IMG/VR virus record: IMGVR_UViG_3300020576_002769
Span: 17,985 to 81,984 of that record
Direction: 5' to 3' (one strand)
Source: a virus
Lineage: Duplodnaviria > Heunggongvirae > Uroviricota > Caudoviricetes
DNA length: 64,000 bases
Positions 1,141 through 37,269 of the stretch are shown piece after piece. A program made the translations under genes and the position numbers. Numbering within the stretch: position 1 is the first letter of the stretch; every line of letters starts with the position of its first letter. The notes under the pieces are model-generated. The model searched no databases. It saw only the letters and a list, made by a program, of their open reading frames with translations, and had not been told where the DNA came from.

Positions 1141-1170
1141 AAAAACCCCCAATTATTGTTGGGGGTTTTT
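1141..1170. terminator. bidirectional rho-independent terminator
   Basis: AAAAACCCCCAATTATTGTTGGGGGTTTTT lies between convergent genes. Confidence 0.6.
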
Positions 1171-2268
1171 ATCTTGTAATAATGAATAAATTTTGGATAT
1201 TTTTTTTAACATTTTTGATGAAATATAATTAATCTGTTTTAATTCGTATCTAAAAAATCGTTCATAATCTTCACCAAATCTATTAAGTTTATTAATATAT
1301 TTTATAAAATATTTTTTCTTTTTACCCTCAAACCCAAGTAATGTTTCAATAAAATTATCTGTTAATAATTGGTGCATTAAACCGCCTTTCCAATTAATCA
1401 TTGTTTCATAAAACTCTTTTAACGTAAAATCAACAATCTCTTCGTCTGACCCATTTTCCGGATACTGAATATTATTATCATCAAAAGTTGATTTTATCTC
1501 AGAGATATCATCCAATAATTGTTCTCTTAATTTTTCATAGGTTAATTGAGACGCGTCTTTATATGTTTGATAGGTTTTGTTATTAAGAATGAAATTATAA
1601 AATTCTTGTTTAGTAATCCCAAGTTCTTCCAATGATGAATATATTTCTGTTGGTCTAACTAAATTTTCCGTAATATGTGAAAAATACATATAATGGATAA
1701 ATTTATTTAAAGGTTCTATACCTCCAAAAGAACGTTTTGAACCGGTTTCATAATCAACACGTTTTGATGTGTTAATATTAGGGTTCATCACATCGTCGTA
1801 CGCGTGTTTAATTTCGTGAACCAAACTAGAAACTATCGTCACTCTATCTTTTCTAAATGTGTCGATTAAATCTTGAGTGGTTGTTTGAGAATTTACCGCC
1901 AACTTTATAAATAAATTAATCGTAGTTGGATTTGTTGTTGAGATATAATTAAAATTTTTAGCCATTTCTATAGTACCTCGTTGGGTCATTCCTAAAACAA
2001 TCAACTTAATATCATTATCGTTTAAATCATAATCATCCAAGTCCTGAAGTTTAAAATCAAGTATGATTCTATTAAAAGTAGTATTATTAATCACAAATGA
2101 ACCATTTAATTCTATCTCATTTGTTAAAAAATCTTGAATGTCTATATTTGGATGTAATATCGACATCATATTTTCATAAACTTGTCTTGCAATATCAACA
2201 ATGTTGGTAGGTACACCAACCGCTTCTGTTAATGTTTTATATTGATTTTCTTTAATTCTAATTTTCAT
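1153..2268 (-). CDS. putative HExxH zinc-metallopeptidase-like protein, member of the MKI.I.E N-terminal family
   Basis: HEIKH motif (LVHEIKHAYDD). N-terminus MKIRIKEN. Upstream ATATTTATAGAT-ATG motif. Confidence 0.5.
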   Translation of the reverse strand: MKIRIKENQYKTLTEAVGVPTNIVDIARQVYENMMSILHPNIDIQDFLTNEIELNGSFVINNTTFNRIILDFKLQDLDDYDLNDNDIKLIVLGMTQRGTIEMAKNFNYISTTNPTTINLFIKLAVNSQTTTQDLIDTFRKDRVTIVSSLVHEIKHAYDDVMNPNINTSKRVDYETGSKRSFGGIEPLNKFIHYMYFSHITENLVRPTEIYSSLEELGITKQEFYNFILNNKTYQTYKDASQLTYEKLREQLLDDISEIKSTFDDNNIQYPENGSDEEIVDFTLKEFYETMINWKGGLMHQLLTDNFIETLLGFEGKKKKYFIKYINKLNRFGEDYERFFRYELKQINYISSKMLKKISKIYSLLQDKNPQQ

Positions 2269-2350
2269 ATCTATAAATATATTTTAATAACTAGTGCTAG
2301 AAACTAGGCTACTAGTAATAATAAATATCTATAAAAATGCAAAAATTTGA

Positions 2351-2572
2351 TTATCTTCGTCTTCCACCGTAATAATGATGGTGATGAGGATTTGAAGGAT
2401 AAACATAAACCGGGGTAATAATTGGTTGATAAGTATATGGGGTGTAAAAATGATATACACGTCTTGGTCTTGGTTCCGGTCTTTGACGAATACCGTAAGA
2501 ATATACTACGGCCTGATAACCTTCACAAGAAGTTAAAACGACCAACATTAAAAGTAATAAAAATTTTTTCAT
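2351..2572 (-). CDS. small lipoprotein with His-rich C-terminus
   Basis: MKKFLLLLMLVVLTSC lipobox. Start taken at the internal Met of the track ORF. The overlapping plus ORF 2422-2625 is treated as spurious. Confidence 0.45.
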   Translation of the reverse strand: MKKFLLLLMLVVLTSCEGYQAVVYSYGIRQRPEPRPRRVYHFYTPYTYQPIITPVYVYPSNPHHHHYYGGRRR

Positions 2573-2652
2573 ATTTTCCAATAAAATCAAATATTATACC
2601 AATTCAGGTAATTATTTTCCATTAAAATCACATTTCTAACAAAAATTTTCCA

Positions 2653-2898
2653 CTATTTACGTTCATTGATAATTTGTTCAACATATTTATCTCTTTGTTC
2701 CAACAAATATTCGGTACGTTCAATTAATCTTTGTCTTTCACCGTCAGTTAATTTAAGTATTAAATCTTCCTTTTCCTTAATCATTTGTTTATATTCGTTC
2801 ATCTGAGATGTGAATACCATATTTTGATAATACATTATTCCGACTAATAAAATAATCGTAAATGATTGTTCTTTTAATTTTGATAAAAATTCATTCAT
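2653..2898 (-). CDS. hypothetical coiled-coil protein
   Basis: ORF that abuts the next gene. Confidence 0.4.
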   Translation of the reverse strand: MNEFLSKLKEQSFTIILLVGIMYYQNMVFTSQMNEYKQMIKEKEDLILKLTDGERQRLIERTEYLLEQRDKYVEQIINERK

Positions 2899-3287
2899 TA
2901 TTTTTTAATTGTTTTTACCGGGAATCCGAAATTATCCTCAAACCATTCAGCTAAAATAGGTTTCCATCTATTACCAAATAAATTTTCAAAGGTATCATAA
3001 TCGTCATCAGAATAAATCATAAGTATAGGAGATTCTTCAACTAATCTTTTAATTTTTTCTTCATTTTCATTACCAAAATCATCAGTTAACCAATAATCTT
3101 TTGAGTACCATCTAAACAAGTCTCCGTCATCACTAAAATTACCGGCATAAAATACTGCACCAATATCTGTTTCATTACCATCATCATCGAAGGCATAAGA
3201 CCAATTGATTTTATCAGGTTCATATTTGGAATTGATATATTTTAAAATATAATCATAAACCCTGTTTTCAGATATAATAAATTTCAT
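2898..3287 (-). CDS. hypothetical protein, MKFIISEN N-terminal family
   Basis: N-terminus MKFIISENRVYDYILKYINS. Upstream ATATTTATAGAT-ATG. Confidence 0.5.
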   Translation of the reverse strand: MKFIISENRVYDYILKYINSKYEPDKINWSYAFDDDGNETDIGAVFYAGNFSDDGDLFRWYSKDYWLTDDFGNENEEKIKRLVEESPILMIYSDDDYDTFENLFGNRWKPILAEWFEDNFGFPVKTIKK

Positions 3288-3289
3288 AT

Positions 3290-3796
3290 CTATAAATATA
3301 ACAATGAATCAATTTCATTTCCAATCTTCTTATAGACCGGACAATCCCGGTGAGGTTCTCTTTTCCCTATCGGAGTCTTAATAATTTTAACACCTAAGGA
3401 TTCAAATTTTTTGTAGTAGTTTTTAACTTTTGTATAAGTAATTCGTTTAACATTACCCCATCCCCAAGAACCCTGAACAACGTAAAGTTCGGCGTTTGGA
3501 AATGTCCTCCGGATTGTATTAATTAATGTTGAGATTCCCAAATCTAAATATCGGTCATTTGTCCCAATTGATATTACAATATTACAGATATCCGGGGAAA
3601 TTCGGTGGTTTTTAACCATTTTTGTTAGTTTTGGGACATTTATTCCTTTTTTCCATAGTCCAACACCTTTTTTAATTTTTGTTGAATGTAAATCAATATA
3701 TGGAGTTTGAGAGTCACCAATAATAAGATTGGGGTATGTTTGAGCATACCCCAAAGTTGAAAGTAATATTAAAAAATAAAAAAAATATCTAACCAT
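3290..3796 (-). CDS. secreted SGNH/GDSL-family hydrolase (esterase)
   Basis: Signal peptide MVRYFFYFLILLSTLGYAQ. Block I IIGDSQT (GDS). Block III GTND. A D..H-like block EPHRD. Confidence 0.65.
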   Translation of the reverse strand: MVRYFFYFLILLSTLGYAQTYPNLIIGDSQTPYIDLHSTKIKKGVGLWKKGINVPKLTKMVKNHRISPDICNIVISIGTNDRYLDLGISTLINTIRRTFPNAELYVVQGSWGWGNVKRITYTKVKNYYKKFESLGVKIIKTPIGKREPHRDCPVYKKIGNEIDSLLYL

Positions 3797-4082
3797 TTAA
3801 TTTAACAATTTTACCATTCTTCATCATAATTTTTATTACACTATTTTCTTTCGTAAAGAAAGGAAAAAAACCCTGAATGGTGTGTGCGAAGGTATCGACT
3901 GGTATTAATTTATTATCCATTAACCTTATTGAAGCTCTACCCTCATTTTCAAGGAAAACATTATAATCTTTAATGTTTTTAAATATGATTTCATATTTTC
4001 CTTTTTTCGTGATTCTGATTACGAATGATACATCCGGATATAATTTTTTTACTATTATTCGTAAAGATTCTAATTTATCCAT
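3789..4082 (-). CDS. hypothetical protein
   Basis: ORF of 97 aa. Confidence 0.4.
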   Translation of the reverse strand: MDKLESLRIIVKKLYPDVSFVIRITKKGKYEIIFKNIKDYNVFLENEGRASIRLMDNKLIPVDTFAHTIQGFFPFFTKENSVIKIMMKNGKIVKLNG

Positions 4083-4083
4083 T

Positions 4084-4281
4084 TTATTTTTCTCTACCCC
4101 AAGTATAATGAATTATTTCACCATTAACAAATTCTTTCCAATATTTTTTCCAAGGACCGGAAAATAATATCGTCATACATCCGTTGCTATTAGCGATTCT
4201 GTGATATGAATCCCGGGGAAAAAACATTAAAGTTTTTTCTCGTCTAACGATATGATACTCACCGGTGGTCTCATCATCCAA
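4084..4281 (-). CDS. hypothetical protein
   Basis: ORF of 65 aa. Confidence 0.35.
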   Translation of the reverse strand: MDDETTGEYHIVRREKTLMFFPRDSYHRIANSNGCMTILFSGPWKKYWKEFVNGEIIHYTWGREK

Positions 4282-4310
4282 GATGTGTTCGTCATACTCA
4301 CCAAATAGTT

Positions 4311-4469
4311 TTACCGACCAAGCATTAAATGAGTAATACCTTCATAATCGCACGGATACATAGTTTCCATTAATTTGTCAAGAAAAAATTCAACTTTACT
4401 CAATCTTCTTTTTATTGAAGAATCCATCTCCAATAATTTGTATTGTCTTTCTGTTATAATAAGTTTCAT
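4311..4469 (-). CDS. small protein (52 aa), MKLIITE N-terminal family
   Basis: Not in the track (<60 aa). Translates as MKLIITERQYKLLEMDSS... Preceded by ATATTTATTTAT-ATG. Confidence 0.4.
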   Translation of the reverse strand: MKLIITERQYKLLEMDSSIKRRLSKVEFFLDKLMETMYPCDYEGITHLMLGR

Positions 4470-4652
4470 ATAAATAAATATCCCCCCACTCTAAAAAAAA
4501 AATGACGAAATTTTTAATTAAACTATCAGACTTGATATGGTTACTAACAAACTAATCTTAATTTGTGTTTTACCCAACCTAAAATTTTTAATACATTAAT
4601 GTTAGGTATTTATATTAAAGTCATAACATGACATAACATTAAATTTAAAATT

Positions 4653-6158
4653 ATGAAAAAATTATTATCAATTTTATTTTTGTTAATTACATTAACATTA
4701 ATGTCTCAGACCGTAACTTATCAAACAAATAATTCGGTTATTTCTAACCCGGAAAAAGGGTTTTATCACTACACATCAACAGGTTCCGGCGGTGGGTATA
4801 ATTTACTAAACCAAACTACATTATCAGGGTATAGAACAAACGAAAATATCACCGTAATACAAAGACAATTCTTTTTACGAGATTTTATTACAGGAATTCC
4901 AATTACATCAACATATCTTACAAATATGCAAACCGATTTTAATAGAATCAGAAATGCCGGAGCTAAAGTAATTGTTAGATTTACATACACATCTTCAAGT
5001 TCTTATACAGTATTCCAACCAACAAAGGCTCAAATACTTGCCCATATTCAACAACTAACTCCGGTGGTAAATGCTAATAAAGATATTATAGTTGCTATTC
5101 AGGCAGGTTTCATTGGTAAGTATGGAGAATGGTATTATACCGGTTCTTCAGAATTTGGTAATGGGAACTACACCATATTAACTACGACACAATGGAACAA
5201 CAGAAAAGAAGTAATGGATAGGATGATTAATTCATTTGACATTTCAATCCCGTTACAATTAAGGTATCTATATGCTAAACAAAAAATGTATGGTAATACT
5301 TATGTTGGTCGAATAGGTTTTTATAATGATTCTTTCTTAGGAACATATGGGGATAGTGGGACATTTCTTGTTAGTGGTTCTCAAGGACAACCAAGTACGG
5401 CTGACGTAACCTATTGGCAAAATAACACCATAAATAACCCTGTAAGTGGTGAGAGTAATATGGTTAATTCTCCAAGAACAGATTGTCCAAATGCTATGAT
5501 TGAAATGGACAGATTTAATTGGAGTCTTATTAACAAAGATTATTTCCCTACGGTCATTTCTAACTGGCAAACAAATGGTTGTTTTACAACTATGCAAAGA
5601 AGTTTAGGATATGATTTTAGATTAAACAGTTCAAATATTACAAATGGTATTTTAACTATTAATATTGGTAACTATGGATATGCTAATTTGTTTAAAGATA
5701 GAAAAGCGTTTCTTGTATGTAAAAACACGACCACCAATGTTAATTACTCTTTCTTGATTGATTCGAATATCAAAAATTGTTCTACCACAAGTTATAACAT
5801 AGTGACGAATTTAACAACTTTAGGCTTACCGGTGGGTTCTTATAAACTATATCTTAATTTACCTGACCCTTTGTTAAATAATATCAATTATTCTATTAGA
5901 ACATCCAATTTAAATTTATGGACCACTGAAGGTTTTAATGATTTACAACAAACATACAGAGTATCAACCCTTACAATAAAAAACAACCGAGTTGATATTG
6001 AGGATGATAAAATTGTTAAAGTTAGAATATACAATTTATATGGTCAATTAATTTCAGAAGATTTGGATTTGTCTGTTTTAAATGAAGGTCTTTATATTAT
6101 GGTTGGTCAAACAATGACAAATAGAACTATCACTAAAAAATTCTATAACAACAAATAA
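4653..6158 (+). CDS. secreted glycoside-hydrolase-like protein with T9SS (Por) C-terminal sorting domain
   Basis: N-terminal signal peptide. The C-terminal ~70 aa (KIVKVRIYNLYGQLI...LNEGLYIMVGQ...TKKF) match the type IX secretion C-terminal-domain pattern. The NPEKGFYHY start resembles the Bacteroidota DUF4874/DUF4832 glycoside-hydrolase-like family (from memory). It is one of the few plus-strand genes. Confidence 0.7.
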   Translation: MKKLLSILFLLITLTLMSQTVTYQTNNSVISNPEKGFYHYTSTGSGGGYNLLNQTTLSGYRTNENITVIQRQFFLRDFITGIPITSTYLTNMQTDFNRIRNAGAKVIVRFTYTSSSSYTVFQPTKAQILAHIQQLTPVVNANKDIIVAIQAGFIGKYGEWYYTGSSEFGNGNYTILTTTQWNNRKEVMDRMINSFDISIPLQLRYLYAKQKMYGNTYVGRIGFYNDSFLGTYGDSGTFLVSGSQGQPSTADVTYWQNNTINNPVSGESNMVNSPRTDCPNAMIEMDRFNWSLINKDYFPTVISNWQTNGCFTTMQRSLGYDFRLNSSNITNGILTINIGNYGYANLFKDRKAFLVCKNTTTNVNYSFLIDSNIKNCSTTSYNIVTNLTTLGLPVGSYKLYLNLPDPLLNNINYSIRTSNLNLWTTEGFNDLQQTYRVSTLTIKNNRVDIEDDKIVKVRIYNLYGQLISEDLDLSVLNEGLYIMVGQTMTNRTITKKFYNNK

Positions 6159-6172
6159 TCTATTATAAAAAA

Positions 6173-6199
6173 TCCCCCAATCTAATTAAAGATGGGGGA
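6173..6199. terminator. bidirectional terminator hairpin
   Basis: TCCCCCAATCTAATTAAAGATGGGGGA flanked by A/T runs, between convergent genes. Confidence 0.5.
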
Positions 6200-7413: not shown

Positions 7414-7683
7414 TTATAAGAGTGTTTTAACATTTAGTTTATGATGGGATTCGAACCATTCTTTTAAGTATATTTTAAATTCATCAATATCAACATTAAA
7501 CATTGGTCCAATATCAGTTTCAGCCCATATTGTATCAAAATACAATATGCTATTATTAATATCAAACATTATTTTTGATGAATCACCACCGGGAGAATAC
7601 CCATCGTTAATATTATCAAATTTAAGTTCTTCCCCTTGAAATCGTGTGAAATATTTAAATAATAATTCTTTTTTCTTATCCAT
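7414..7683 (-). CDS. hypothetical protein
   Basis: ORF of 89 aa. Confidence 0.45.
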   Translation of the reverse strand: MDKKKELLFKYFTRFQGEELKFDNINDGYSPGGDSSKIMFDINNSILYFDTIWAETDIGPMFNVDIDEFKIYLKEWFESHHKLNVKTLL

Positions 7684-8665: not shown

Positions 8666-9043
8666 TTATATTTCTTCTTCAACAAAGTTATCAATAATAA
8701 ATTTTAGAGAAATACCAAACATACTAAGTCCCATAAGAGATAATAGTTCGTAGTCCTCAATACGTACACCATAAGTATCATTATAATATCCACTATAAAT
8801 GTGCCACTCCCTGTTTTCACGTTGTTGAGCCAACCATATACCGTTTTCCGGAGTACGAAACCAATACATAGGTCCCCATTCATTCAATAATTTATTAAAT
8901 CTTTCTTTACTCGGAAACATATAACGACAATCAACCGGGGCTCCCTCCCAACTTGTTATCATTTCAATTCTATCCGACAAGTTATACCCCAACGTTTTGT
9001 TGATTAAATTTAATAATCTGTCCTCAGTTATTGTAATTTTCAT
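8666..9043 (-). CDS. hypothetical protein, MKITITED N-terminal family
   Basis: N-terminus MKITITEDRLLNLINKTLGYNLSD. Upstream GTATTTATTATT-ATG. Confidence 0.5.
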   Translation of the reverse strand: MKITITEDRLLNLINKTLGYNLSDRIEMITSWEGAPVDCRYMFPSKERFNKLLNEWGPMYWFRTPENGIWLAQQRENREWHIYSGYYNDTYGVRIEDYELLSLMGLSMFGISLKFIIDNFVEEEI

Positions 9044-9058
9044 AATAATAAATACCCG

Positions 9059-9370
9059 TTAGGACTGAATATACTTAATATCAACACCAAAATAGGTTTC
9101 AAACCAATTTTTGATTACCGATTCGGCTTGAGATTCATCCGGAAAATAAAGGGTTGCAAAATTTCGAATAAAATCATTATCAACATATAATCGTCCGTCC
9201 TCATAATCATATTCCATTAAAACTTCAGACAAATCATAATCATCCATATTTTCCGATGGATAATATATAATAATAAAATTATCAAACGAAGATACGTTAT
9301 ACCCAATGAGTTTATTCAGATAATTTATCTGCAAGTCCAAAAGTTTATTTTCAGAAATTATAATTTTCAT
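9059..9370 (-). CDS. hypothetical protein, MKIIISEN N-terminal family
   Basis: N-terminus MKIIISENKLLDLQINYLNKLIGYNVSS. Upstream ATATTTATTGTT-ATG. Confidence 0.5.
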   Translation of the reverse strand: MKIIISENKLLDLQINYLNKLIGYNVSSFDNFIIIYYPSENMDDYDLSEVLMEYDYEDGRLYVDNDFIRNFATLYFPDESQAESVIKNWFETYFGVDIKYIQS

Positions 9371-9408
9371 AACAATAAATATCCGGACAATTCAAAACGT
9401 GGGGATAA

Positions 9409-14993: not shown

Positions 14994-15028
14994 ATAAAAA
15001 ACCCCACTTAATCAAATGTGGGGATAGG
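14994..15028 (-). terminator. rho-independent terminator after the HNH gene
   Basis: On the minus RNA: CCCCAC-AUUUGAUUAA-GUGGGG followed by UUUUUU. Confidence 0.6.
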
Positions 15029-16093
15029 TTTAACTTTTATATCAACATTATCTTTATAATCAATTGATATCTCATAATACGGAAACTTCTCTTTAAGGTA
15101 ACTCTTAAATGTCATTTGATTACCCTTCTTCAAATTGTCCTCAGCCCATAAAGGTTGAAAATTTGTATAATGACATAACTTCTTGATTTCTTCTAAAGTC
15201 TTAGCAGACGATATTGGAATGATGTGGTCAATATGCCAACCATAAAACCCATAGTTCTCCCAAGACATACCTTCCAAAAAATTAATCTCCAAATATTTTC
15301 TGAACTCCTCAGGTGTACATCCAATCATCTTAAACATTGGACTATCCTTTTTAGCCCCAATCTGTTTTATATATTGTTTAGTTCTATTACGAAGGTTACA
15401 TATCGCACGATAAAAAGGGTCTTTCTGTTTTCTTGATTTATGATACTCTTTTTTCTTAGTTGGATTATTTTCACGATATATCTTTCTACTCACCTTAATC
15501 TTATTCGTGTTGTTTTCACGATATTTTTTCTTAGTATTCTTAACCTTAGTTGGATGCTCAAGTCTATAAATCCTAATCCTTTCTTTTTCACATTCCCCAC
15601 ACTTTGTAACAGAACCTTTATAAAATTCAGATATAGGTTTGGTTAATCCACATTTATTACAAGTACTTTCAATCAAACTCTCCTGAATCATATCAATCTT
15701 TTCCTTACGAGTTAATTTAACTTTTACTGAATTGATTAATATAAAAGGTTTATTTGGATAATACCATATAATCTTAGAATATTTATCATTAATCTTTTTA
15801 GTCTTAGAATATTTATCATTAATCTTTTTAGTCTTAGAATATTTATTATTAATCTTTTTAGTCTTAAGAATATTTTTATCATATGTTTTTTCAGTTTTTC
15901 CTACCTTATTCTTCTCTCTATATCTCCTCTTAGATTCTTTTACCTTATCCGGATTATTCTTACGATATCTTTTTTTATCAATATTACAACACTCCCGACA
16001 TTGATAATGCAAACCATCAGAAGAACTCTTACGATTATTGAATTCTGACAATCCCTTCTCAATACCACATTTTGAACATCTCTTTAATTCCAT
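15008..16093 (-). CDS. HNH homing endonuclease with N-terminal zinc ribbons and an internal K-rich tandem repeat
   Basis: C-terminal WHIDHIIPISSAKTLEEIKKLCHYTNFQPLWAEDNLKKGN. N-terminal CSKCG..C..C motifs. It is a paralog of 59272-59991. Confidence 0.75.
   Translation of the reverse strand: MELKRCSKCGIEKGLSEFNNRKSSSDGLHYQCRECCNIDKKRYRKNNPDKVKESKRRYREKNKVGKTEKTYDKNILKTKKINNKYSKTKKINDKYSKTKKINDKYSKIIWYYPNKPFILINSVKVKLTRKEKIDMIQESLIESTCNKCGLTKPISEFYKGSVTKCGECEKERIRIYRLEHPTKVKNTKKKYRENNTNKIKVSRKIYRENNPTKKKEYHKSRKQKDPFYRAICNLRNRTKQYIKQIGAKKDSPMFKMIGCTPEEFRKYLEINFLEGMSWENYGFYGWHIDHIIPISSAKTLEEIKKLCHYTNFQPLWAEDNLKKGNQMTFKSYLKEKFPYYEISIDYKDNVDIKVKPIPTFD
15773..15872 (-). repeat. 33-bp in-frame tandem repeat (about 3 copies) inside the HNH gene
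   Basis: CTTAGAATATTTATCATTAATCTTTTTAGT repeated three times. It encodes the KTKKIN[ND]KYSK repeats. Confidence 0.7.
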
Positions 16094-16862: not shown

Positions 16863-17065
16863 AACAATAAATATTCTTATCTTTTTATTTGGCCAATTGA
16901 AATATTCTTTATACCTTTGTGTCGATAGACCGACTCGTTAGAGGAGTAGGACATTACCGGGGGAACCTTCATCGACAGATGAAGAACCAATCCGGATGGG
17001 GGCGTACCTTTTTAATCGGGGGTGGAAGAGTAGACGGATGGGTGCTCCATATTTTTATATATAAA

Positions 17066-26248: not shown

Positions 26249-26604
26249 AACTCCCCCATCATACCTGCTAAACCCATACCTTCCCAATCTAATGAACCGG
26301 GTGACACAAAATAAACAGCATCCGGTTCTATATTGAGTCTGTTTTTAACCCACCAAGATACTAACATATTCTCCTCAATATCTTCAAATGAGAAAAGTCT
26401 TATAGAACTTATAAATCGTTCAGATACATAAAGATTATTTTGTTTTTTTGACCATCTCATAACAATATCACCATCATCATCAATTAATAATGTCTGTGGA
26501 TGGCCATCTAAGTCAAAATCTTTTCTTGTCAATTCACTTAATTTATCATCCAAGATACGATAAGCTAATTGTTTTCTCTTATCTTCAGTTATTAATATTT
26601 TCAT
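26245..26604 (-). CDS. hypothetical protein, MKILITED N-terminal family
   Basis: N-terminus MKILITEDKRKQLAYRILDDKLSELT. Confidence 0.5.
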   Translation of the reverse strand: MKILITEDKRKQLAYRILDDKLSELTRKDFDLDGHPQTLLIDDDGDIVMRWSKKQNNLYVSERFISSIRLFSFEDIEENMLVSWWVKNRLNIEPDAVYFVSPGSLDWEGMGLAGMMGEF

Positions 26605-26933
26605 TAATTCAATACAGATTTATTCACGTGATGGATTATTTTAACCGGTAATTCAAATTTTTGTGAAAACCACTTACCTACAACATCTTTAGCTTCTTTC
26701 GGAGTATAACCAAAAAACACAATTGGTCTAACAACATCCTCACAAATATATAGAACAGATATTCTATCACCATAAATCATAATAACACCATCACCATTAC
26801 GATAATTAATAATCTTCTGTTCCCCGAATGAATCTGTTTGGTAATTAACATCTTCATACATATTTGAAAACTCTTTATCTAATTCTCGGAAAGCTAATTG
26901 GTCTCTTTTGTTTTCTGTTAAAATAAATTTCAT
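26604..26933 (-). CDS. hypothetical protein, MKFILTEN N-terminal family
   Basis: Start at the internal Met MKFILTENKRDQLAFRELDKEFS. Upstream ATATTTATTAAT-ATG. Confidence 0.5.
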   Translation of the reverse strand: MKFILTENKRDQLAFRELDKEFSNMYEDVNYQTDSFGEQKIINYRNGDGVIMIYGDRISVLYICEDVVRPIVFFGYTPKEAKDVVGKWFSQKFELPVKIIHHVNKSVLN

Positions 26934-26967
26934 ATTAATAAATATCTTTAAAAATAAAAACCCCCAA

Positions 26968-28821: not shown

Positions 28822-29202
28822 TTACTTTTTATTGAATTGTTCGTCATCCATATGTTTCACAGTCCGGATTTCAACATCACATAATCTTCTATAATGATTA
28901 GTATATTTTTTATAAATTCGTTTAATAACTTCATTTTTAATAGTATCATATATTTTAGGAGACCCAACCCATACACTAACTAAATTATATAATTTTTCGT
29001 CATTTAAAACAATTAAACTTAAATCAGGATACATTCTAGCAATTACGTTGGCTCTTGAACCGGGAGTTAAGAATTGAATATATTCAAATTTACTACCTGA
29101 CCTACTTTGAAATGTGGTAAATATATCATCACTAATCCCAATACCATTAACTATAGTATCAATTATCTTTTCTAACTTATCCTCACTAATTCTAAAATCC
29201 AT
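28822..29202 (-). CDS. hypothetical protein, MDFRISED N-terminal family
   Basis: N-terminus MDFRISEDKLEKIIDTIVNGIG. Upstream CTATTTATTATT-ATG. Confidence 0.5.
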   Translation of the reverse strand: MDFRISEDKLEKIIDTIVNGIGISDDIFTTFQSRSGSKFEYIQFLTPGSRANVIARMYPDLSLIVLNDEKLYNLVSVWVGSPKIYDTIKNEVIKRIYKKYTNHYRRLCDVEIRTVKHMDDEQFNKK

Positions 29203-29221
29203 AATAATAAATAGTCATTAA

Positions 29222-30754: not shown

Positions 30755-31063
30755 TTATTGTTCTTTTAATTCGTTATACATTTTTTGAATCTTGGAGTAT
30801 GATTTATACCATCTTGGAACCATACCCACACCTTCGATATAACACCCTAAAAGTATTCCTTTAATTGAATCTGAGATAAATCCCGGAACTTTATAGTTAG
30901 ATATAATTCGAGTTCCTCTAATTATGTAAGGGTCGTTTTCTCGTAATTTTTCGATAAAGTCTAAACATTCTTTATCAGATTTTGGGAATCCACATACCAT
31001 TATCCCGATAATATCACCAAGGAATATAAGGACTAGTATTGGAATAATTAAAAGTAATATCAT
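30755..31063 (-). CDS. small membrane protein, tandem paralog A
   Basis: N-terminal TM helix, GFPKSDK, and C-terminal PRWYKSYSKIQKMYNELKEQ. Paralog of 31065-31430. Confidence 0.5.
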   Translation of the reverse strand: MILLLIIPILVLIFLGDIIGIMVCGFPKSDKECLDFIEKLRENDPYIIRGTRIISNYKVPGFISDSIKGILLGCYIEGVGMVPRWYKSYSKIQKMYNELKEQ

Positions 31064-31064
31064 A

Positions 31065-31430
31065 TTATTTATTTTTTAATTCGTTATACAATTTACTAAT
31101 TTCTGAATGAGATTTATACCATCTCGGTACCGCACCCATACCATCTACATACCAACCAAATGTAAGACCTTTAATTCCCTTTGAGATAAATGGTTTCTGA
31201 AATGTATATATCAAAGTTTCGTCAAGAATTTTAGTATTATACATATTCTTAATTTGATTTCTAAAACTTTCATCAGGATACTCAATTTCACTTGGTTGAT
31301 TATTTTTTAACGTCTCAAGTAATTCTAAAATTTTCTTATCCGAAGTAGGGAATCCTACAACTGACATTACAACAATATCCCAAATTAGGATAAACCCCAG
31401 TACTACTAATCCAATAATAATTCCTATCAT
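31065..31430 (-). CDS. small membrane protein, tandem paralog B
   Basis: N-terminal TM helix, GFPTSDK, and C-terminal PRWYKSHSEISKLYNELKNK. Confidence 0.5.
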   Translation of the reverse strand: MIGIIIGLVVLGFILIWDIVVMSVVGFPTSDKKILELLETLKNNQPSEIEYPDESFRNQIKNMYNTKILDETLIYTFQKPFISKGIKGLTFGWYVDGMGAVPRWYKSHSEISKLYNELKNK

Positions 31431-31570: not shown

Positions 31571-32416
31571 TTACTTTACGTTCATCAAGAACTTTTCACC
31601 TCCGTTGGCCATATAAGTCGGAACTTGCGCTCCACCTGATTTCCAAGCTTCAATCCATTGTTGTTGAAGTAACATAGGTGTTAAGGTTTGTTGTCTTAAT
31701 CTATTAGATTCGGCTTCAGCTCTAGCATTTGTTAATAATGCCTCAGCGTTACCATTAGCTGTCGCTACCTTAATTTTTGCTTCAGCTTCAGCCTGTTTAA
31801 CTTTATTCTCAGCCATTAATGCCGCTTGGACTGCATTATTCTTAGCGTTAATCGCTTTCTTAAATGAATCCGGATACACCAAATTAGAGGTGAACTGATT
31901 AATTATGAACCCTTCTTTAAGTAATTGTGTTTCTAACAATCGTCTAACTTCAACTTCGAATTGTTCTCGATTTCCAATCAAACCATCTGCGGTATATTTG
32001 TTAGTCGCCAAACGGAATGCGTCATATACTGCGGTTTTTAAGAATCCTTCCTCAATTTCACTCAAACTTCTTCTGTATTTAGCAAAGATTGTAGGAACTT
32101 TTTCCCTTTGAACCGAATAGTTCATAATTGGCGAAACACTAAATTCAGAACCATCTTTACTATTTACCACAAAAGAATTGTCTCCAGTATATTCTTTGTG
32201 TTGAATAAATGTTGGGAATTCATAAATTTTGGATGTGAATGGATTATAAAATGCCCATCCCGTTACTTCTGTAACATCATTTACCCCTTTACCACTTCCG
32301 TACATATCAACTTTGACACCCACGTGACCCGCGTCGATTCTTTCACAAGAATTCATCAAAAATAAACTAGCGAATACTAAAACAATCGCCCCTAAAATAA
32401 AACTACCTCTACTCAT
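31571..32416 (-). CDS. SPFH/band-7 (stomatin/prohibitin/HflC-like) lipoprotein
   Basis: Lipobox LFLMNSC. SPFH-like core. C-terminal Ala/Glu-rich helix AQAALMAENKVKQAEAEAKIKVATANGNAEALLTNARAEAE. Confidence 0.65.
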   Translation of the reverse strand: MSRGSFILGAIVLVFASLFLMNSCERIDAGHVGVKVDMYGSGKGVNDVTEVTGWAFYNPFTSKIYEFPTFIQHKEYTGDNSFVVNSKDGSEFSVSPIMNYSVQREKVPTIFAKYRRSLSEIEEGFLKTAVYDAFRLATNKYTADGLIGNREQFEVEVRRLLETQLLKEGFIINQFTSNLVYPDSFKKAINAKNNAVQAALMAENKVKQAEAEAKIKVATANGNAEALLTNARAEAESNRLRQQTLTPMLLQQQWIEAWKSGGAQVPTYMANGGEKFLMNVK

Positions 32417-32485
32417 TTTTTTCTTTTTTTAATTAATACTTTTTAAATTGGGTACAAAGATACAACTATTTTTTATACCACCAAA

Positions 32486-32734
32486 TTATTTTTCACTTTT
32501 TTTTTCATCATTTGAAAAAACACCCTTCATATTGGTTAAAAACATTATGATATTTTTTCTAAAATAAAAGATAGGACCTATTGTTATTGAAATTAACAAT
32601 AAAACCCCAAGATAAAACACGTAGGTATCACGATAATTCATTAACTCAAATGACACCCCTATTAATTCAAACCAAACAAAACCGATTAGTAATACACCCA
32701 AAAACTTCAATAAACTTTTCATATTTTTAATCAT
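32486..32734 (-). CDS. small membrane protein
   Basis: Two TM helices. A TATCTTTG -7 box lies nearby at about 32448-32460 (plus-strand gtacaaagata). Confidence 0.4.
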   Translation of the reverse strand: MIKNMKSLLKFLGVLLIGFVWFELIGVSFELMNYRDTYVFYLGVLLLISITIGPIFYFRKNIIMFLTNMKGVFSNDEKKSEK

Positions 32735-32829
32735 TAAATAAATTATTCAAATATCTAAACATCTCAGTATATGGATGTAAATTAATACATACCATATCAT
32801 TAACGTCATAACCCAACTGACGAATAAAT

Positions 32830-33306
32830 TCATCGGCACATATCTTGAAATCTTGGATGAGTTTCATCTACTCTATCTCTATGTCCATATGAACCTCTTG
32901 AAGTATAAGAATCCCACATAATTTCATAATAATTACGTATAATACCTCTTCTTCCTCTAGTATTTAATTCAATATCTAATCCTCCTCTGTCAGTTAAATC
33001 ACACCAATCTAAAATTTTATCAGTGGTGTTTAATAAAATTGAAATTAAGATATCTTGACTATTGTAATCACCATCTATTTCAAAGACCAAGGTATAATCT
33101 CTATAATATGGTGAGTACCTAACTAAGTATAATCTTCGAAGATTTGAATTACTAGACAATATATCTTTTCTAAACAAACAATAAATTAAATTGTTTATCA
33201 CATCAGTTTTTTTATCATAAGGAGTATCACAATAACTCCAATGTGAAGGATAATATACACTCATAGTAATTATTACTTTCGTTATTTGGGAGCAAAGATA
33301 AAACAA
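32830..33306 (-). CDS. hypothetical protein
   Basis: ORF of 158 aa. A TATCTTTG box lies upstream (plus-strand gagcaaagata at about 33285). Confidence 0.4.
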   Translation of the reverse strand: MFYLCSQITKVIITMSVYYPSHWSYCDTPYDKKTDVINNLIYCLFRKDILSSNSNLRRLYLVRYSPYYRDYTLVFEIDGDYNSQDILISILLNTTDKILDWCDLTDRGGLDIELNTRGRRGIIRNYYEIMWDSYTSRGSYGHRDRVDETHPRFQDMCR

Positions 33307-33343
33307 ATAATTTAAATAAACTATTTATTGTAAAATATTTTTT

Positions 33344-34159
33344 ATGGAAAAACATAAATTGATTAGATTGGTAGAAAGAAGTGGTAAAACATTTAAAAAT
33401 ATGAACCCAACTCGGGTATATCGTGAAATATTAGATAATAAATTCTACGAAGCCTTATCTCACGTATTGAAAGCGAAAGATTTAGTTATATTCTCTTTAT
33501 TAGTTCCAAGATTTAATATGGGTTCTGATATTGATGAAGACTACGATAGAATAGAATATAATATGTTCACAATTGAACTTGTTGAAATTTACAACTCTAA
33601 CCCTGACGTTAAATGCCCAAATTGTGATAATGGTGTGGTTAATTGTGATATGTGTGATGCTAATGGAGAAACTGAATGTGGTCGATGTGATGGTACCGGT
33701 GAAGAAGATTGTGACTATTGTGACGGTTCAGGGGTATATGAAGATGGTGAAGAATGTGATATGTGTGAAGGTTCCGGAAGAATGACTTGTGGAAAATGTA
33801 ACGGTTACGGTACCTCGTCTTGTGAATATTGTGGTGGTGATGGTGAAGATAAATGTTTAGAATGTTCCGGTAGTGGAACCATTGAGTCCGACACACAATC
33901 AGAAGTCACTTATACCGATTTTGTTTCTTGGAGTGGTCGTTGGAAAATGTATTTTTCAGGGATAAAACACGGAAAACAGATAGATATTCAAGATGCCGAT
34001 AATTTTTACAACAATAGTCAAACTTTGGTATTGAGAACTTATGACGAATTATCCGAAGAATATGAAGGATATGATGAAGGTGATACCTTTTTGTTCAGAA
34101 TGAATGAAAAACCGGATATTACTCAAAGAGATAACGGAAAAGGTGTTATTATTATCTAA
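33344..34159 (+). CDS. DnaJ-type zinc-finger (8 x CxxCxGxG) protein without a J domain
   Basis: CPNCDNG, CDMCDANG, CGRCDGTG, CDYCDGSG, CDMCEGSG, CGKCNGYG, CEYCGGDG, CLECSGSG. The internal track ORFs 33573-33785(+) and 33660-33896(-) are spurious. Confidence 0.65.
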   Translation: MEKHKLIRLVERSGKTFKNMNPTRVYREILDNKFYEALSHVLKAKDLVIFSLLVPRFNMGSDIDEDYDRIEYNMFTIELVEIYNSNPDVKCPNCDNGVVNCDMCDANGETECGRCDGTGEEDCDYCDGSGVYEDGEECDMCEGSGRMTCGKCNGYGTSSCEYCGGDGEDKCLECSGSGTIESDTQSEVTYTDFVSWSGRWKMYFSGIKHGKQIDIQDADNFYNNSQTLVLRTYDELSEEYEGYDEGDTFLFRMNEKPDITQRDNGKGVIII

Positions 34160-34667
34160 GATTACGATAATCCTCTAAATGTAATGAAATCACATTATAA
34201 ACTTGTGGTAAATAAAATCTTCGTATCCATTGACTATATAACGCTAGACTTTCAAAACCATCTTTCCATTTAATAAAGGTAAAACCATCATTTTCTAAAT
34301 CACCTTCAGTAAATTCAACATCTGAATCATCAGACGCTTTAACAATGTACGAAGTAGTATTAACGGGAACTCCATCACTTATATCCCAAAATGGTGTTGC
34401 GTGAGAATATGTTGTTTCACCATCCCAATCACAATACCAATCTACCGTACCTGCAAAACTATCATAACCTATTTGACAATTTTTATATTTTTTTGGAAAC
34501 AATTTTTCTTTAAATAAATCAAATATAATATCATTAGCCATACTTAAGTCAATATAACAATCACTTCTATTAATTAACTCAAGTTTAGATAAACCGGTAA
34601 TATTTTCCGCCTTTTGCAAACCAAGGTCCGAAATTAAATCATTTAATATTTTTTTTCTATCTTTCAT
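34152..34667 (-). CDS. hypothetical protein
   Basis: ORF of 171 aa. Confidence 0.4.
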   Translation of the reverse strand: MKDRKKILNDLISDLGLQKAENITGLSKLELINRSDCYIDLSMANDIIFDLFKEKLFPKKYKNCQIGYDSFAGTVDWYCDWDGETTYSHATPFWDISDGVPVNTTSYIVKASDDSDVEFTEGDLENDGFTFIKWKDGFESLALYSQWIRRFYLPQVYNVISLHLEDYRNLR

Positions 34668-34707
34668 ATTGTTGTAATCTATTTAATAAATATGTATATT
34701 TATAGTT

Positions 34708-35355
34708 ATGGTATCAGAAAAACTAATTAATATTTATTACAAAAATTTAAAAAAACCTACTATTATTAATGGATTGGTTTTACACCCATTTATGGTTGAT
34801 AAAAAAATAATTTGGGAAATAGATAATGTTAATGATGTATCATATAGTTCTTATGTGGTAGAGGGTCGTCTCGAACATCTATTATCCGATTTCTTAGATT
34901 TAGCAGGAGTTAAACCGGATGATTGGAACCAACTTTCTGTTGATTATTGTAGAGTAACAGAACCTGATGTATATGTTAATGATGAAGTTAGAAATAAAAT
35001 TAATAAATCATTAGAAACGTTTAATAATATTACATTAAATGATAGTGGTGAAATTTTAAAATCCGAATGTTTTGTTAAAGATTGGTCAATAGAATATAGA
35101 GATGAAGAGTTATTATTCCATTTAGATTTAGAATTATTTAATCCCAAATTAGATGATGTCGATATTGATGACGACCAATTACAGGATTTCATACAATCTT
35201 TCATTTACGATGAAACCTCAATAGAACAAGAGTGGGACTTAATACAAAATCAAATTAATATTATTTATTCAGAAAAAAATTTATTTGACAATATCTATAT
35301 GTTTTCAACTGCCGTTATAGGTTATTATGACACTTTCGGTAATGGATTAACTTAA
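34708..35355 (+). CDS. hypothetical acidic protein
   Basis: ORF of 215 aa. Confidence 0.4.
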   Translation: MVSEKLINIYYKNLKKPTIINGLVLHPFMVDKKIIWEIDNVNDVSYSSYVVEGRLEHLLSDFLDLAGVKPDDWNQLSVDYCRVTEPDVYVNDEVRNKINKSLETFNNITLNDSGEILKSECFVKDWSIEYRDEELLFHLDLELFNPKLDDVDIDDDQLQDFIQSFIYDETSIEQEWDLIQNQINIIYSEKNLFDNIYMFSTAVIGYYDTFGNGLT

Positions 35356-35714
35356 TTATAAGTTAAATCAACACAAACCATTGGTAAAAACTTTTCAATA
35401 TTATCTAATATTTTATCTGAAATATCGTCTTCAACCCAACTTGGTAAATCCCATATACTACATTTATCCCAATCCCCTTGAAATCCAACTCTAACATCAA
35501 TATCTAAATAAATAGTACCACTATACTTACATTGATTGTATTTTTCAGTTTCCCATAAACTTACCTTATCAACTTTAAATTCAACATTCCAATCAGCATA
35601 TTCATCATTTGACGTTGAATAGGGCATATTATATTGACCTTCCATTTTATTATCACTATTAATAATTCTACGGATAAGTTTGTCTAATTTTTCTATTTTT
35701 TCTTCCTGTATCAT
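35352..35714 (-). CDS. hypothetical protein
   Basis: ORF of 120 aa. Confidence 0.4.
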   Translation of the reverse strand: MIQEEKIEKLDKLIRRIINSDNKMEGQYNMPYSTSNDEYADWNVEFKVDKVSLWETEKYNQCKYSGTIYLDIDVRVGFQGDWDKCSIWDLPSWVEDDISDKILDNIEKFLPMVCVDLTYN

Positions 35715-36748
35715 TATATATAATCACCAAACATTTCGTTAATATATTTTTGAGTTAAACTCCAATCAGCATAATCCGGGATTCTAAAATCCAACCAAGG
35801 TTCTTCACCTTCTTGCATTAAATTTTCCATCATATCAACCCATTTCCCCCAATTCTCAAAACAGTTATCAGTATAACCCCATAAAGACCTATCACTAACG
35901 TATTTTAATATTGAGTTTTTTAATTCATTTGGGTTAAATTTAAGAACATAATGTTCTATAAGTTTTTCCTGGTTGTATCTTGATGGTATTGCCTCCCATT
36001 TAGCGGAAGAAGTATCAAAAAAAGTACTTAACTCACTCATAACATCATCATAAACTTCACTCTCATACGCACTATTATAAGCATTGTCGTGAATACTATA
36101 TAATTCACTTCTCAATTCATCTAAATAACCCTCATCCATAAGATAATTCATTGATTCTTCATCGCTAATAACATCACCAACATTTTCCGGTGTTAGATAA
36201 AAAATATCATCTTCAGAATAATTGTTAAATAAATCAGGAGAACTATCATCAACTTCAACTTTCCAATTGGTTAATATGTCCAACATATATTTTTTAAGTC
36301 GTTCAATATTCTCATTATCTAAAACATCTATCACATCACGATAAACGTCATCAGTTGTATCCCAATAACGTTCCATCGATTCTTCACCCAACACATATTT
36401 AACAGCATTTCTTGTTGAGCCATCTCGTCCTTCTCTTGGGTCAAATAAATCTGCCAAAGATTCTCTGTCAGATAGTTTTAAATAATACTCATTATTTTCA
36501 AATACAACGTCGTTAAACTGATTTATACATTTAAGTAACGTATCTTTATCATTGACAACATTTAATAAAAAATATAATATTTCATTTTGATAATCTGATA
36601 AATCACTACTAAATGGGTCAATAAGGTTAATAACACCTTTTTTATTGAAAAATTTTAAGATATTTTCAACATTATCAAAAAATGGGAGTAATTCCTCTAT
36701 TTCACCATTGTTAAATTCATTTACGTATTTTAAGTATTTTTCTTCCAT
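35714..36748 (-). CDS. hypothetical acidic protein
   Basis: ORF of 344 aa. Confidence 0.45.
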   Translation of the reverse strand: MEEKYLKYVNEFNNGEIEELLPFFDNVENILKFFNKKGVINLIDPFSSDLSDYQNEILYFLLNVVNDKDTLLKCINQFNDVVFENNEYYLKLSDRESLADLFDPREGRDGSTRNAVKYVLGEESMERYWDTTDDVYRDVIDVLDNENIERLKKYMLDILTNWKVEVDDSSPDLFNNYSEDDIFYLTPENVGDVISDEESMNYLMDEGYLDELRSELYSIHDNAYNSAYESEVYDDVMSELSTFFDTSSAKWEAIPSRYNQEKLIEHYVLKFNPNELKNSILKYVSDRSLWGYTDNCFENWGKWVDMMENLMQEGEEPWLDFRIPDYADWSLTQKYINEMFGDYI

Positions 36749-37269
36749 TATTGTTTACTTGTATATTCAGGTCTAAAAAAGATTACTTTAATTCCGGTTT
36801 TTGATGTTACAACTTCTTTGAAGTAATCATTCACACCCAGATTAACTTCATCTTCAATTTCCCATCCGTAATCTTCATTTTTTAATGCTTCTGATAATTT
36901 ATATGTATTACCATCAAATATTGTAACTTCACCACTTAAATCATCAACCTTAACTTTAACTGTGACAAATGGTTCATCATCATCAACACCCCACTTCTTA
37001 ATATCAGTTACCTCAAAAAAGAAATCATATCCACCAAAATCATCTATGTGATGTGGGTTCTGAAGTAATATGGTATTTGCAAGGTTTTTTGATTCCTCAA
37101 TACCTCTCCACTCAATAAGATATTTGTAGGCTTGTTCGTAAGTAATATCATTGTTTTCGTTATCCAATCCAAAATTAAGAATAAATTGTCTATTAATATC
37201 ACCCCCAAACTTATCAAAGTATCGGAATATTATGTTTTTGTATTTAGATTCGGTTATAATGAATTTCAT
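36748..37269 (-). CDS. hypothetical protein, MKFIITES N-terminal family
   Basis: N-terminus MKFIITESKYKNIIFRYFDKFGG. Confidence 0.5.
   Translation of the reverse strand: MKFIITESKYKNIIFRYFDKFGGDINRQFILNFGLDNENNDITYEQAYKYLIEWRGIEESKNLANTILLQNPHHIDDFGGYDFFFEVTDIKKWGVDDDEPFVTVKVKVDDLSGEVTIFDGNTYKLSEALKNEDYGWEIEDEVNLGVNDYFKEVVTSKTGIKVIFFRPEYTSKQ

Follow-up and report, generated by a model that had tools for sequence, protein, structure and literature searches.

The window analysed here, a stretch of 64,000 nucleotides, comes from an uncultured jumbo phage of Flavobacteria. ClpP is encoded immediately upstream of the window on the contig, which also encodes DnaJ and FKBP. Nine genes of the window, all on the minus strand, begin with M-[KD]-[IFL]-x-[IL]-[STK]-E-[NDRS], their true N-termini being located at 2268, 3287, 4469, 9043, 9370, 26604, 26933, 29202 and 37269. 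Their strand, coordinates and N-termini agree with the preliminary description of this DNA, and the two looser variants mentioned there were recovered at the starts 41246 (MKDFILKILKE) and 42040 (MKDIILSEKQF). The motif is real, far above chance level and strictly N-terminal: in the 131 predicted proteins (19,104 residues) the expression [IFL][IRT][IL][STK]E[NDRS] matches eight times at residue 3 and never internally, and in the six-frame translation of the window the full motif is confined to the nine gene starts. Counting other leader types, about 15 of the 131 genes carry a leader.

Four of the nine proteins are homologous over their full length (BLASTP E 1.6e-9 to 2e-3) and have a C-terminal W[FV]..x..G/L.V..I in common: a 103-aa core member (9059..9370, leader MKIIISENKL), a 109-aa protein (26604..26933, MKFILTENK), a 119-aa protein (26245..26604, MKILITEDK), whose gene shows translational coupling to the one upstream and lacks the TATTTAT element described below, and a 129-aa protein (2898..3287, MKFIISEN). 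They are matched by three leaderless paralogues, at 7414..7683 (minus strand), where the first helix and a C-terminal WFE..H.LNVK motif are kept, at 47834..48148 (minus strand; BLASTP E 1.6e-6 to the 9059 protein) and at 20875..21240 (plus strand; E 1.2e-7 to the 47834 protein). These seven proteins share a new small alpha/beta fold. Two further carriers are weakly related to this family: the 125-aa protein of 8666..9043 (leader MKITITEDRLLNLI, E about 1e-3; orthologues P0011, P0051 and P0083-P0097) and the 173-aa protein of 36748..37269 (leader MKFIITESKYKNII), whose match to the family HMM, 18 bits, is owed mainly to its N-terminus. The AF2 model of the 9059..9370 protein (pLDDT 84.7) has a coil at residues 1-6 and a helix at residues 7-22; among its 62 orthologues, conservation is 90% at residues 1-10 versus 72-75% elsewhere.

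The other three carriers are unrelated to the rest. The 371-aa protein of 1153..2268, with leader MKIRIKENQYKTLTE followed by AVGVP, contains the HExxH motif noticed earlier; this was confirmed as VHEIKH at residues 150-155 and does not vary within the family. Whatever the leader type, the Glu preceding AVGVP is also invariant in this family, alongside the catalytic H-E-H; this Glu (E15) has L/I-x before it. A G-V-P coil separates leader and domain in the AF2 model, and residues 1-6 form a low-confidence coil outside the fold in this model as in that of the 9059 protein. The 126-aa protein of 28822..29202 has a variant leader (MDFRISEDKLEKII), its orthologues starting with MDIKISEEKIEKL and MEIKISEDKLNYL. 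The 52-aa ORF of 4311..4469 (MKLIITERQYKLLE followed by M) is probably a copy, cut short at its 3' end, of a family of about 90 aa containing '..MYPCDY..' (compare MKIIITEEQNTSLRRRFYYIKKVLDVVLDNMYPCDY in L060). The idea of one large paralogous family was thus abandoned, since the leader is a module fronting unrelated proteins and full-length homology does not extend to all carriers. The statement that the genes diverge completely after their start holds for 1153, 28822 and 4311, and fails for 9059, 26604, 26245 and 2898.

Additional minus-strand genes of the window have looser or different leaders. The 108-aa protein of 41714..42040 starts with MKDIILSEKQFEAL; its gene is preceded by a terminator-like hairpin (42098-42076) and by TATTTAT (42060-42054). 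The 313-aa protein of 40305..41246 has a type-2-like leader, MKDFILKILKE followed by SIPGP, comparable to MRDLIRRILKE followed by AVGVP in the HExxH family. A type-2 leader is present at 22714..23070 (MTLRNNIKRILREES), and another recurrent leader, type 3, at 20041..20523 (MNLQENIYRIKEMMGL) and 23074..23502 (MNLQENIHRIKTLM), in both cases behind TATTTAT-N4-ATG. A Sec, Tat or lipoprotein signal peptide, which would show a positive n-region and then an h-region of about 7-15 hydrophobic residues, was considered and discarded: the leader has only three hydrophobic residues, followed by T-E-x-Q and charged residues, and true lipoprotein signals of the window look different (e.g. MKKFLLLLMLVVLTSC).

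The search for the leader in related phages, suggested in the preliminary description, was carried out on IMG/VR and gave at least 150 matches; the consensus, codon and cluster counts below are among the matches listed. Nearly all listed matches are at ORF starts, on low-GC contigs, and the sequences that follow the leader form at least 63 unrelated clusters of 50 to 518 aa. Among the proteins carrying it are an ECF-type sigma factor, a pterin-4a-carbinolamine dehydratase and, read by eye from an HQDLDG motif, a probable DHH-type phosphoesterase. Without being forced, the consensus over the 63 clusters reaches residue ~15 ([SEN]8-Q9-[YFL]10-[KR]11-x-[LI]13, with Q9 in 56/63 and L/I13 in 55/63 families), the overall form being MKIIITExQ..L..E. 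Prokaryote genomes totalling 596 Gbp contain five matches to a 30-nt leader pattern, each of them on a short MAG contig, and IMG/VR contains at least 120. The leader is therefore widespread and virus-specific. At least four leader types are interchangeable and swap within single orthologous families. In the 110-aa L047 family (1664 homologues), which adjoins the protease in one lineage, MKIIITEEQLKKIK, MKELIKKLLRE, MDIKKLIKEE and MKLIELLNE replace one another ahead of a constant core.

Synonymous usage at leader positions equals background over the 63 independent families listed: Q9 is CAA in 0.84 of cases (background 0.85), L13 uses five codons and S8 both serine boxes. Since, in addition, the upstream DNA element accompanies only 23 of the 63, selection acts on the peptide; the earlier argument from varying synonymous codons thus extends well beyond the window.

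This upstream element, TATTTAT-N4-ATG, precedes seven of the nine window leader genes. It is well illustrated at 9375..9381 (minus strand), 4 nt upstream of the ATG of the 9059 gene, and is found on the same strand at 2273-2279, 3292-3298, 4474-4480, 9048-9054, 26938-26944 and 29207-29213. Other genes have it as well, on the minus strand at 16867-16873, 20528-20534, 23507-23513, 58675-58681 and 63363-63369, and on the plus strand at 34697-34703. In 1556 genes of related DNA it lies most often 4 nt (97 genes) or 5 nt (71 genes) from the ATG, versus ~0.9 expected per position. Of the genes with the element, 18% carry leader types that had played no part in locating the loci, versus 3.5% of the other genes. 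The element is probably a late promoter, judging from the genes it precedes, because in related contigs TATTTAT-N4/5-ATG also stands ahead of the large terminase, a gp25-like baseplate wedge and the S77 prohead protease.

Related leader-bearing contigs encode Portal_T4, Peptidase_S77 and Gp23, and a scaffold-like gene is also present. In two lineages leader genes directly follow the protease and precede the scaffold and capsid genes. Our window shares many genes with leader-bearing contigs, including L025, which carries a Gp23-like capsid gene. No head genes, S77 protease or scaffold were found in the window or its sampled flanks, so that an S77 protease in this phage is inferred from its relatives. 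As proposed earlier, the I-[ST]-E present at residues 5-7 of all carriers fits the (L/I)-x-E pattern cleaved by gp21, and candidate sites of this kind include the invariant one of the HExxH family. A second candidate, hydrophobic-x-E with Glu at residues 13-18, occurs in 32 of 59 families among the matches listed, versus 13% of background windows, and the residue after it is mostly S, N, D, A or G. Members of the small family have no second (L/I)xE, and their helix after residue 7 belongs to the fold; the removable peptide would therefore be only 7 residues long.

The best reading of these data, which we put forward tentatively, is that the leader is a capsid-targeting propeptide, modelled on the T4 capsid-targeting sequence (CTS) and the gp21-cleaved propeptides. 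It would be a phage-specific module of about 7 to 17 residues at the N-terminus, built of a short extended MKIIIT segment and an amphipathic helix ending in hydrophobic-x-Glu, and placed on many unrelated late proteins in what would be a T4-like clade of jumbo phages infecting Flavobacteriia. The tag would bind the scaffolding core, so that the protein becomes part of the prohead; the Peptidase_S77 prohead protease would then cut after the Glu of (L/I)-x-E, at I-[ST]-E (residues 5-7) or, in about half of the families, at the second site (residues 13-18); the mature protein would remain in the head and enter the host with the DNA. A targeting or propeptide role had been suggested from the window, and it gains from peptide-level selection, modularity, virus-specificity, the late-type element, the T4-type head genes, protease adjacency and the (L/I)xE sites. 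It loses its framing as a paralogous family, and some carriers are hard to see as virion cargo: a sigma factor, a pterin dehydratase and a probable DHH phosphoesterase are not typical of capsids. Also against it, about 15 leader genes among 131 would imply dozens of cargo species per virion, and most S77 loci (group B) have no leader gene between protease and scaffold gene.

Carriers such as the sigma factor and the pterin dehydratase look cytoplasmic, as would be expected if the leader were a phage sorting or recognition signal unrelated to the capsid, serving either another late assembly (baseplate or tail, membrane, a replication or assembly factory) or a phage proteostasis set (ClpP, DnaJ, FKBP) for folding or timed degradation. 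Such a signal would explain peptide-level conservation, modularity and virus-specificity equally well. Leader genes are interspersed with baseplate genes (L024), the genes of the proteostasis set lie on the same contig, with ClpP next to the window, and the helices, read from the sequences, appear amphipathic with one basic face, like membrane- or partner-binding helices. It leaves unexplained, however, the invariant Glu after L/I-x at the leader-domain junction and the place of leader genes beside the S77 protease, and the candidate partner ClpP is not consistently linked to leader genes; we consider it rather unlikely. A smaller share of belief goes to a purely structural cap, a first strand and first helix that would stabilise many small phage proteins and would have spread by duplication and N-terminal exon-like shuffling without any targeting role. 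Four to seven window genes are indeed true paralogues whose helix 7-22 is packed onto the domain, the helix is retained in leaderless paralogues, and about 10 paralogues of this fold occur in consecutively numbered 'uncultured Caudovirales phage' entries, probably of one genome. This does not fit with the breadth of the at least 63 unrelated families, with residues 1-6 outside the fold in predicted structures, with the G-V-P coil of the HExxH family, with orthologues exchanging leader types on an unchanged core, or with a conservation higher in the leader than in the domain.

The very sharp spacing of TATTTAT-N4/5-ATG, which suggests leaderless transcripts, together with A/T-rich leader codons and an enrichment of AAA at codon 2 (0.94 vs 0.81), could point instead to gene expression, through a recombining promoter or leaderless-mRNA start cassette or through a coding start optimal for initiation and early elongation. 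We regard this as improbable: synonymous sites are otherwise free, many element-bearing genes have no leader, and the conserved Q9 and L/I13 show helix periodicity. The N-terminus is essentially never used by host or other prokaryote genomes, as would not be expected of a translation optimum general to Bacteroidota. The cassette version recalls the PeSL, mobile promoter cassettes of T4-type phages reportedly described by Arbiol et al. in 2010: here too, small genes of plastic regions begin with repeated elements, and a terminator-like hairpin and promoter-like box lie upstream of some leader genes. But PeSL are non-coding and conserved as DNA, whereas the leader is coding and conserved in its amino acids alone; with silent sites at background usage and 40 of the 63 leaders listed lacking the box, a PeSL-like mobile DNA cassette was rejected.

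The capsid-targeting reading has parallels in well-studied phages. In phiKZ-like phages and SPN3US the cleavage motif is reported to be S/A/G-x-E. These jumbo phages load about 50 different proteins into their heads, among them paralogous families of ejection proteins, and the propeptides of head and ejection proteins are cut after Glu by a gp21-like protease of T4 type (PMC5694885, PMC10052503). Their propeptides, however, are long rather than one shared short tag, and their hosts are Proteobacteria. In T4, core proteins and a CTS of ~10 aa have been described (PMC9958956); the CTS, MKTYQEFIAE, belongs to the internal proteins IPII and IPIII (Mullaney & Black 1996; reviewed in PMC9958956). 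It is likewise a short N-terminal peptide common to otherwise different proteins, encoded away from the head module as here; in T4 it is sufficient for placement in the scaffolding core, and the gp21 protease cuts it off after Glu. By inspection, leader and CTS have no significant sequence similarity, but their patterns are alike (MK start, amphipathic, hydrophobic-x-E end). The leader, known here from sequence alone, is longer (about 15 residues), starts with I-I-I-T-E, has at least four interchangeable types and serves dozens of families per clade, compared with two or three proteins for the CTS. The gp21-cleaved propeptides of gp24, gp22, gp67 and gp68 are, like the leader, amphipathic N-termini ending in L/I-x-E, although they belong to structural core or vertex proteins whereas carriers here include enzymes and regulators. 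Thus MAKINELLRE before S in gp24 and MLKEQLIAE before A in gp22 can be compared with MKELIKKLLRE before Q and ..LIKE before AVGVP here. Portal, protease and capsid protein are of one type in T4 and the relatives of our phage, and in both, small core-protein genes lie beside the protease gene, T4 keeping its core genes 67, 68 and 22 near the position that matches that of the leader genes.

The nine genes that the preliminary description had named as sharing an N-terminal motif are all present in the gene calls of the window, with N-termini as stated. They lie on the minus strand, with start codons at 2268, 3287, 4469, 9043, 9370, 26604, 26933, 29202 and 37269, and two genes with looser leaders start at 41246 and 42040. 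The window has a GC content of about 30%, and its genes are short, dense and mostly on the minus strand. Over the 19,104 residues of the 131 predicted proteins, the core [IFL][IRT][IL][STK]E[NDRS] has 8 matches at residue 3 and none internally, so composition does not account for the motif; in the six reading frames of the window the full leader motif is confined to these gene starts. Ten carriers gave no significant Pfam or PHROGs match. No close deposited phage was found: against 50,697 phage records, neither megablast of 25 kb nor tblastn of the HExxH protein, of a leader-lysozyme and of a leader peptide of 26 aa gave a match. The window matches approximately 17,985-81,984 of the 106,033-bp JGI contig Ga0364485_10109. 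A metagenome protein present on contigs as long as 114,813 bp has the same sequence as the 9059-9370 product, and the 214,776-bp IMG/VR contig IMGVR_UViG_3300032330_001609 is syntenic with the window and carries the same kinds of leader genes. Two ORFs look like cut-down versions of longer genes in relatives: the 52-aa leader ORF 4311-4469 resembles a shortened form of a gene of about 90 aa in the related locus L060, and the short ORF 4084-4281 a shortened form of a 136-aa gene at L001:15514-15924, which suggests that 4084-4469 is a decayed or rearranged spot.

The carriers had been taken for a single paralogous family whose members diverge completely after the leader. They are not a single family: the HExxH protein 1153-2268 (371 aa), 28822-29202 and 4311-4469 have nothing in common with the four genes named next beyond the leader. 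Complete divergence is wrong for 9059-9370, 26604-26933, 26245-26604 and 2898-3287, which by all-against-all BLASTP and an iterated local HMM are whole-length homologues, with a common C-terminal motif W[FV]e..f.l.Vk.I. Three leaderless proteins (7414-7683, 47834-48148 and 20875-21240) are also homologous to these four. In this small family the helix after residue 7 belongs to the fold, and the leader is therefore likely to be partly structural there.

The distribution of the leader (about 15 residues, MKIIITExQ..L..E) was analyzed across viral DNA. A scan of IMG/VR for ATGAARATHATHATHACNGAR gave at least 150 matches in at least 120 loci; nearly all of the matches listed are at ORF starts, on contigs of up to 322 kb with 25-38% GC (most about 30%). 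Among the matches listed, the parts beyond residue 20 form at least 63 clusters without detectable mutual similarity. Positions not forced by the search are still conserved in the 63 listed clusters, namely Q9 (56/63), L or I at residue 13 (55/63), Y, F or L at residue 10 and K or R at residue 11, and conservation falls to background by about residue 16. A 30-nt leader pattern has at least 120 matches in IMG/VR and 5 in bacterial and archaeal genomes totalling 596 Gbp, each of the 5 on a MAG contig no longer than about 8 kb. The leader is thus, as judged from sequence matches, a widespread virus-only module. Among the carriers whose domains can be recognised are a GH24 lysozyme, a SleB-type cell-wall hydrolase with a PG-binding domain, an M78-like peptidase, LRR proteins, an ECF-type sigma factor and a pterin-4a-carbinolamine dehydratase. 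By eye, a 503-aa carrier family looks like a DHH phosphoesterase (..IYFHQDLDGVT..). A string search of the literature with six leader variants found no description of the leader.

Conservation had been proposed to act on the peptide and not just on a DNA signal, and this was confirmed in 63 independent families, where synonymous codon use at leader positions equals the background of the same contigs. The Q9 codon is CAA at a frequency of 0.84, compared to 0.85 in the background; L13 uses five codons, S8 both TCN and AGY, and the Ile positions ATT, ATA and ATC. Among 62 orthologues of 9059-9370, conservation is 90% over residues 1-10 and 72-75% over the remainder.

To these peptides is added a DNA element: TATTTAT is found exactly 4 nt before the ATG in 7 of the 9 window leader genes. 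Occurrences at this spacing are located on the minus strand at 2273-2279, 3292-3298, 4474-4480, 9048-9054, 9375-9381, 16867-16873, 20528-20534, 23507-23513, 26938-26944, 29207-29213, 58675-58681 and 63363-63369, and on the plus strand at 34697-34703. Over 1556 genes in 1.06 Mb of related DNA, the spacing to the start is most often 4 nt (97 genes) or 5 nt (71 genes), where about 0.9 is expected per position, and there is another, broader maximum at 12-17 nt. The same arrangement is present upstream of the large terminase (locus L071), the gp25-like baseplate wedge (L024) and the prohead protease (L047). Element and leader are separable: 40 of 63 leaders have no element, and terminase, baseplate and homing-endonuclease genes have the element and no leader. 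Genes with the element are richer in N-terminal leaders: three further leader types, which played no part in finding the loci, are present in 18% of them versus 3.5% of the genes without it. The late promoter of T4 is TATAAATA, and the element recalls it; from what is known of T4, TATTTAT probably marks a late promoter yielding leaderless mRNAs, and its spacing would put the transcription start at or beside the ATG. Sigma-70-type promoters and intrinsic terminators were not above shuffled expectation in a scan between 24 and 43 kb.

At least three to four further recurrent leader types were seen in the window and related contigs, and they replace one another within orthologous families. In the window they are MNLQENIxRIK (20041-20523, 23074-23502 and 18866-19792), ..I[KL][RK]IL[RK]E (22714-23070 and 40305-41246) and ..LTEEEKNAIREQH (56565-56993); a further type reads MKKIIKLTESDLxRIIKRVIKE. 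The MKIIITE leader is absent from the 635-kb huge phage LR745206 (locus L126 is LR745206.1, 60001-110000). Many genes of this phage start with MKYLKxF..F.E behind a TAATATATA-like box, and this MKYLKxFxxF N-terminus looks like the leader's counterpart in that clade. Recurrent N-termini of its own, MKKSQLRxIIKE and MENxFDLKKFLVENKL, are also present in a cultured phage of Flavobacterium, immuto (vB_FspM_immuto, NC_055915). Since both of these Bacteroidota phages show such N-termini of their own, recurrent leaders may be general. Just upstream of the window start, a ClpP-family protease is encoded (L124:8036-8773), whose closest homologues are in huge phages and Lak megaphages of Bacteroidota, the closest match being LR745206. 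A full-length DnaJ and an FKBP-type isomerase are encoded at L002:107-1033 and L125:747-1172, respectively.

Head genes of T4 type are present in relatives. T4 gp20, gp21 and gp23, used as tblastn queries, match several leader-bearing loci, and Pfam confirms Portal_T4, Gp23 and Peptidase_S77 (the last above gathering score in three lineages) in such loci. In the lineage of L047, L034 and L128-L134 the protease is followed in turn by a basic protein of 52 aa, a 114-aa protein with another recurrent N-terminus (type 4), an MKIIITE leader protein of 114 aa, small ORFs, a scaffold-like protein of about 430 aa and the capsid protein. In L027 three leader-type proteins come after the protease; in the commonest lineage the scaffold gene directly follows it. 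No head gene, S77 protease included, was found in the window or about 10 kb on either side. Many window genes are common to leader loci (33-95% amino-acid identity), and one gene-sharing relative, a contig of 184 kb, has a Gp23-like capsid gene. Flavobacteriia jumbo phages of 293-331 kb and 31-34% GC that carry a 'prohead core scaffolding and protease' gene are on record (PMC9723584). At L071:6057-9668, an intein that contains an HNH endonuclease splits a T4-type portal gene (Portal_T4, Intein_splicing, HNH_3).

In T4, gp21 cuts short N-terminal peptides off core proteins and a 10-residue peptide off gp24 (PMC9958956). The T4 sequences read MAKINELLRE, followed by S, for gp24 and MLKEQLIAE, followed by A, for gp22. 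Every leader has I-[ST]-E at residues 5-7. A second hydrophobic-x-E, with its Glu at residues 13-18 (mostly 15-16), is present in 32 of 59 families versus 13% of control windows, and the residue after it is mainly S, N, D, A or G. The HExxH family (250 members) has very different N-termini (MKIIITENQLKLIKE, MRDLIRRILKE, MSLIVKNLLSE, MKKNIRE), all of which end in L/I-x-E directly before AVGVP. In 53 of its sequences, at about 30% identity, E15, G18, V19 and P20 are invariant, on par with the metal-site H-E-H. In an AF2 model of the HExxH protein (pLDDT 90.7), residues 1-4 score below pLDDT 50, residues 7-17 form a helix and a coil follows at G-V-P. For a 110-aa family encoded beside the protease in the L047 lineage, databases contain 1664 homologues, in which leader types are swapped before a constant core. 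A cut after (L/I)xE would leave the N-termini AVGVPTNIVDIAR on the 1153-2268 product and NKLLDLQINYLNK on that of 9059-9370.

Other genes of the window were noted. By eye, 21335-22680, 50301-51041 and 51328-52095 encode an RNA-ligase-like protein, a polynucleotide kinase-phosphatase and a CCA-adding-type nucleotidyltransferase, which look like a tRNA/RNA repair or maturation set; a Thg1 family gene was matched by Pfam. On the plus strand, 4653-6158 encodes a 501-aa protein with a signal peptide, DUF4874 and DUF4832, whose C-terminal 80 or so residues resemble by eye a type IX secretion sorting domain that Pfam did not report. Three further local paralogue pairs are one with a common 45-residue C-terminal module (..YLKQALEEEDYELAEKIRKQLEKF; 53788-54213 and 54768-55277), tandem small membrane proteins with 40% identity (30755-31063 and 31065-31430) and two HNH-type proteins with 35% identity (15008-16093 and 59272-59991), the first of which has a KTKKINDKYS tandem repeat near 15736-15882.

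Several explanations of the leader were weighed. Mobile DNA or a promoter cassette is rejected as the main cause, silent sites being free and most leaders having no upstream box, and so, in view of the five matches in 596 Gbp of prokaryote genomes, is a general Bacteroidota N-terminal or host-type translation optimum. A secretion signal is rejected on composition, and the clamp-binding motif QLxLF because the leader has the spacing of a helix (Q-hydrophobic-x-x-hydrophobic). Taken together, the results favour a targeting or propeptide function like that of T4, a tentative reading to which we give slightly less than an even chance. A phage-specific sorting tag for a non-capsid destination agrees with most of the data: ClpP, DnaJ and FKBP are encoded on the contig, baseplate genes also have leader genes among them, and some carriers look cytoplasmic. 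A wider form of this explanation, which we consider unlikely, is that the four or more interchangeable leaders are a phage 'address code' unrelated to the capsid, by which dozens of late proteins would be delivered to some phage-specific machine or compartment (e.g. the proteostasis set of the phage itself, ClpP/DnaJ/FKBP, or a factory for assembly or replication), with codes differing among Bacteroidota jumbo phage clades, e.g. those of LR745206 (MKYLKxFxxF) and immuto (MKKSQLRxIIKE).

If the leader is a capsid-targeting propeptide, the co-injected protein cargo of uncultured jumbo phages would be legible straight from sequence. This cargo would likely include proteins for anti-defence and host takeover (metalloproteins, lysozymes, a sigma factor and LRR proteins, along with a large family of small new-fold proteins), the T4 internal-protein paradigm would grow from two or three proteins to dozens, and a short portable packaging tag would be at hand for engineering Bacteroidota phages. 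A tag serving another purpose would still be a clade-wide, virus-only sorting signal without described counterpart. Of known systems, the T4 capsid-targeting sequence, with the propeptides cleaved by gp21, comes closest. The leader has no significant sequence similarity to the T4 capsid-targeting sequence; the likeness lies in position, modularity and site pattern.
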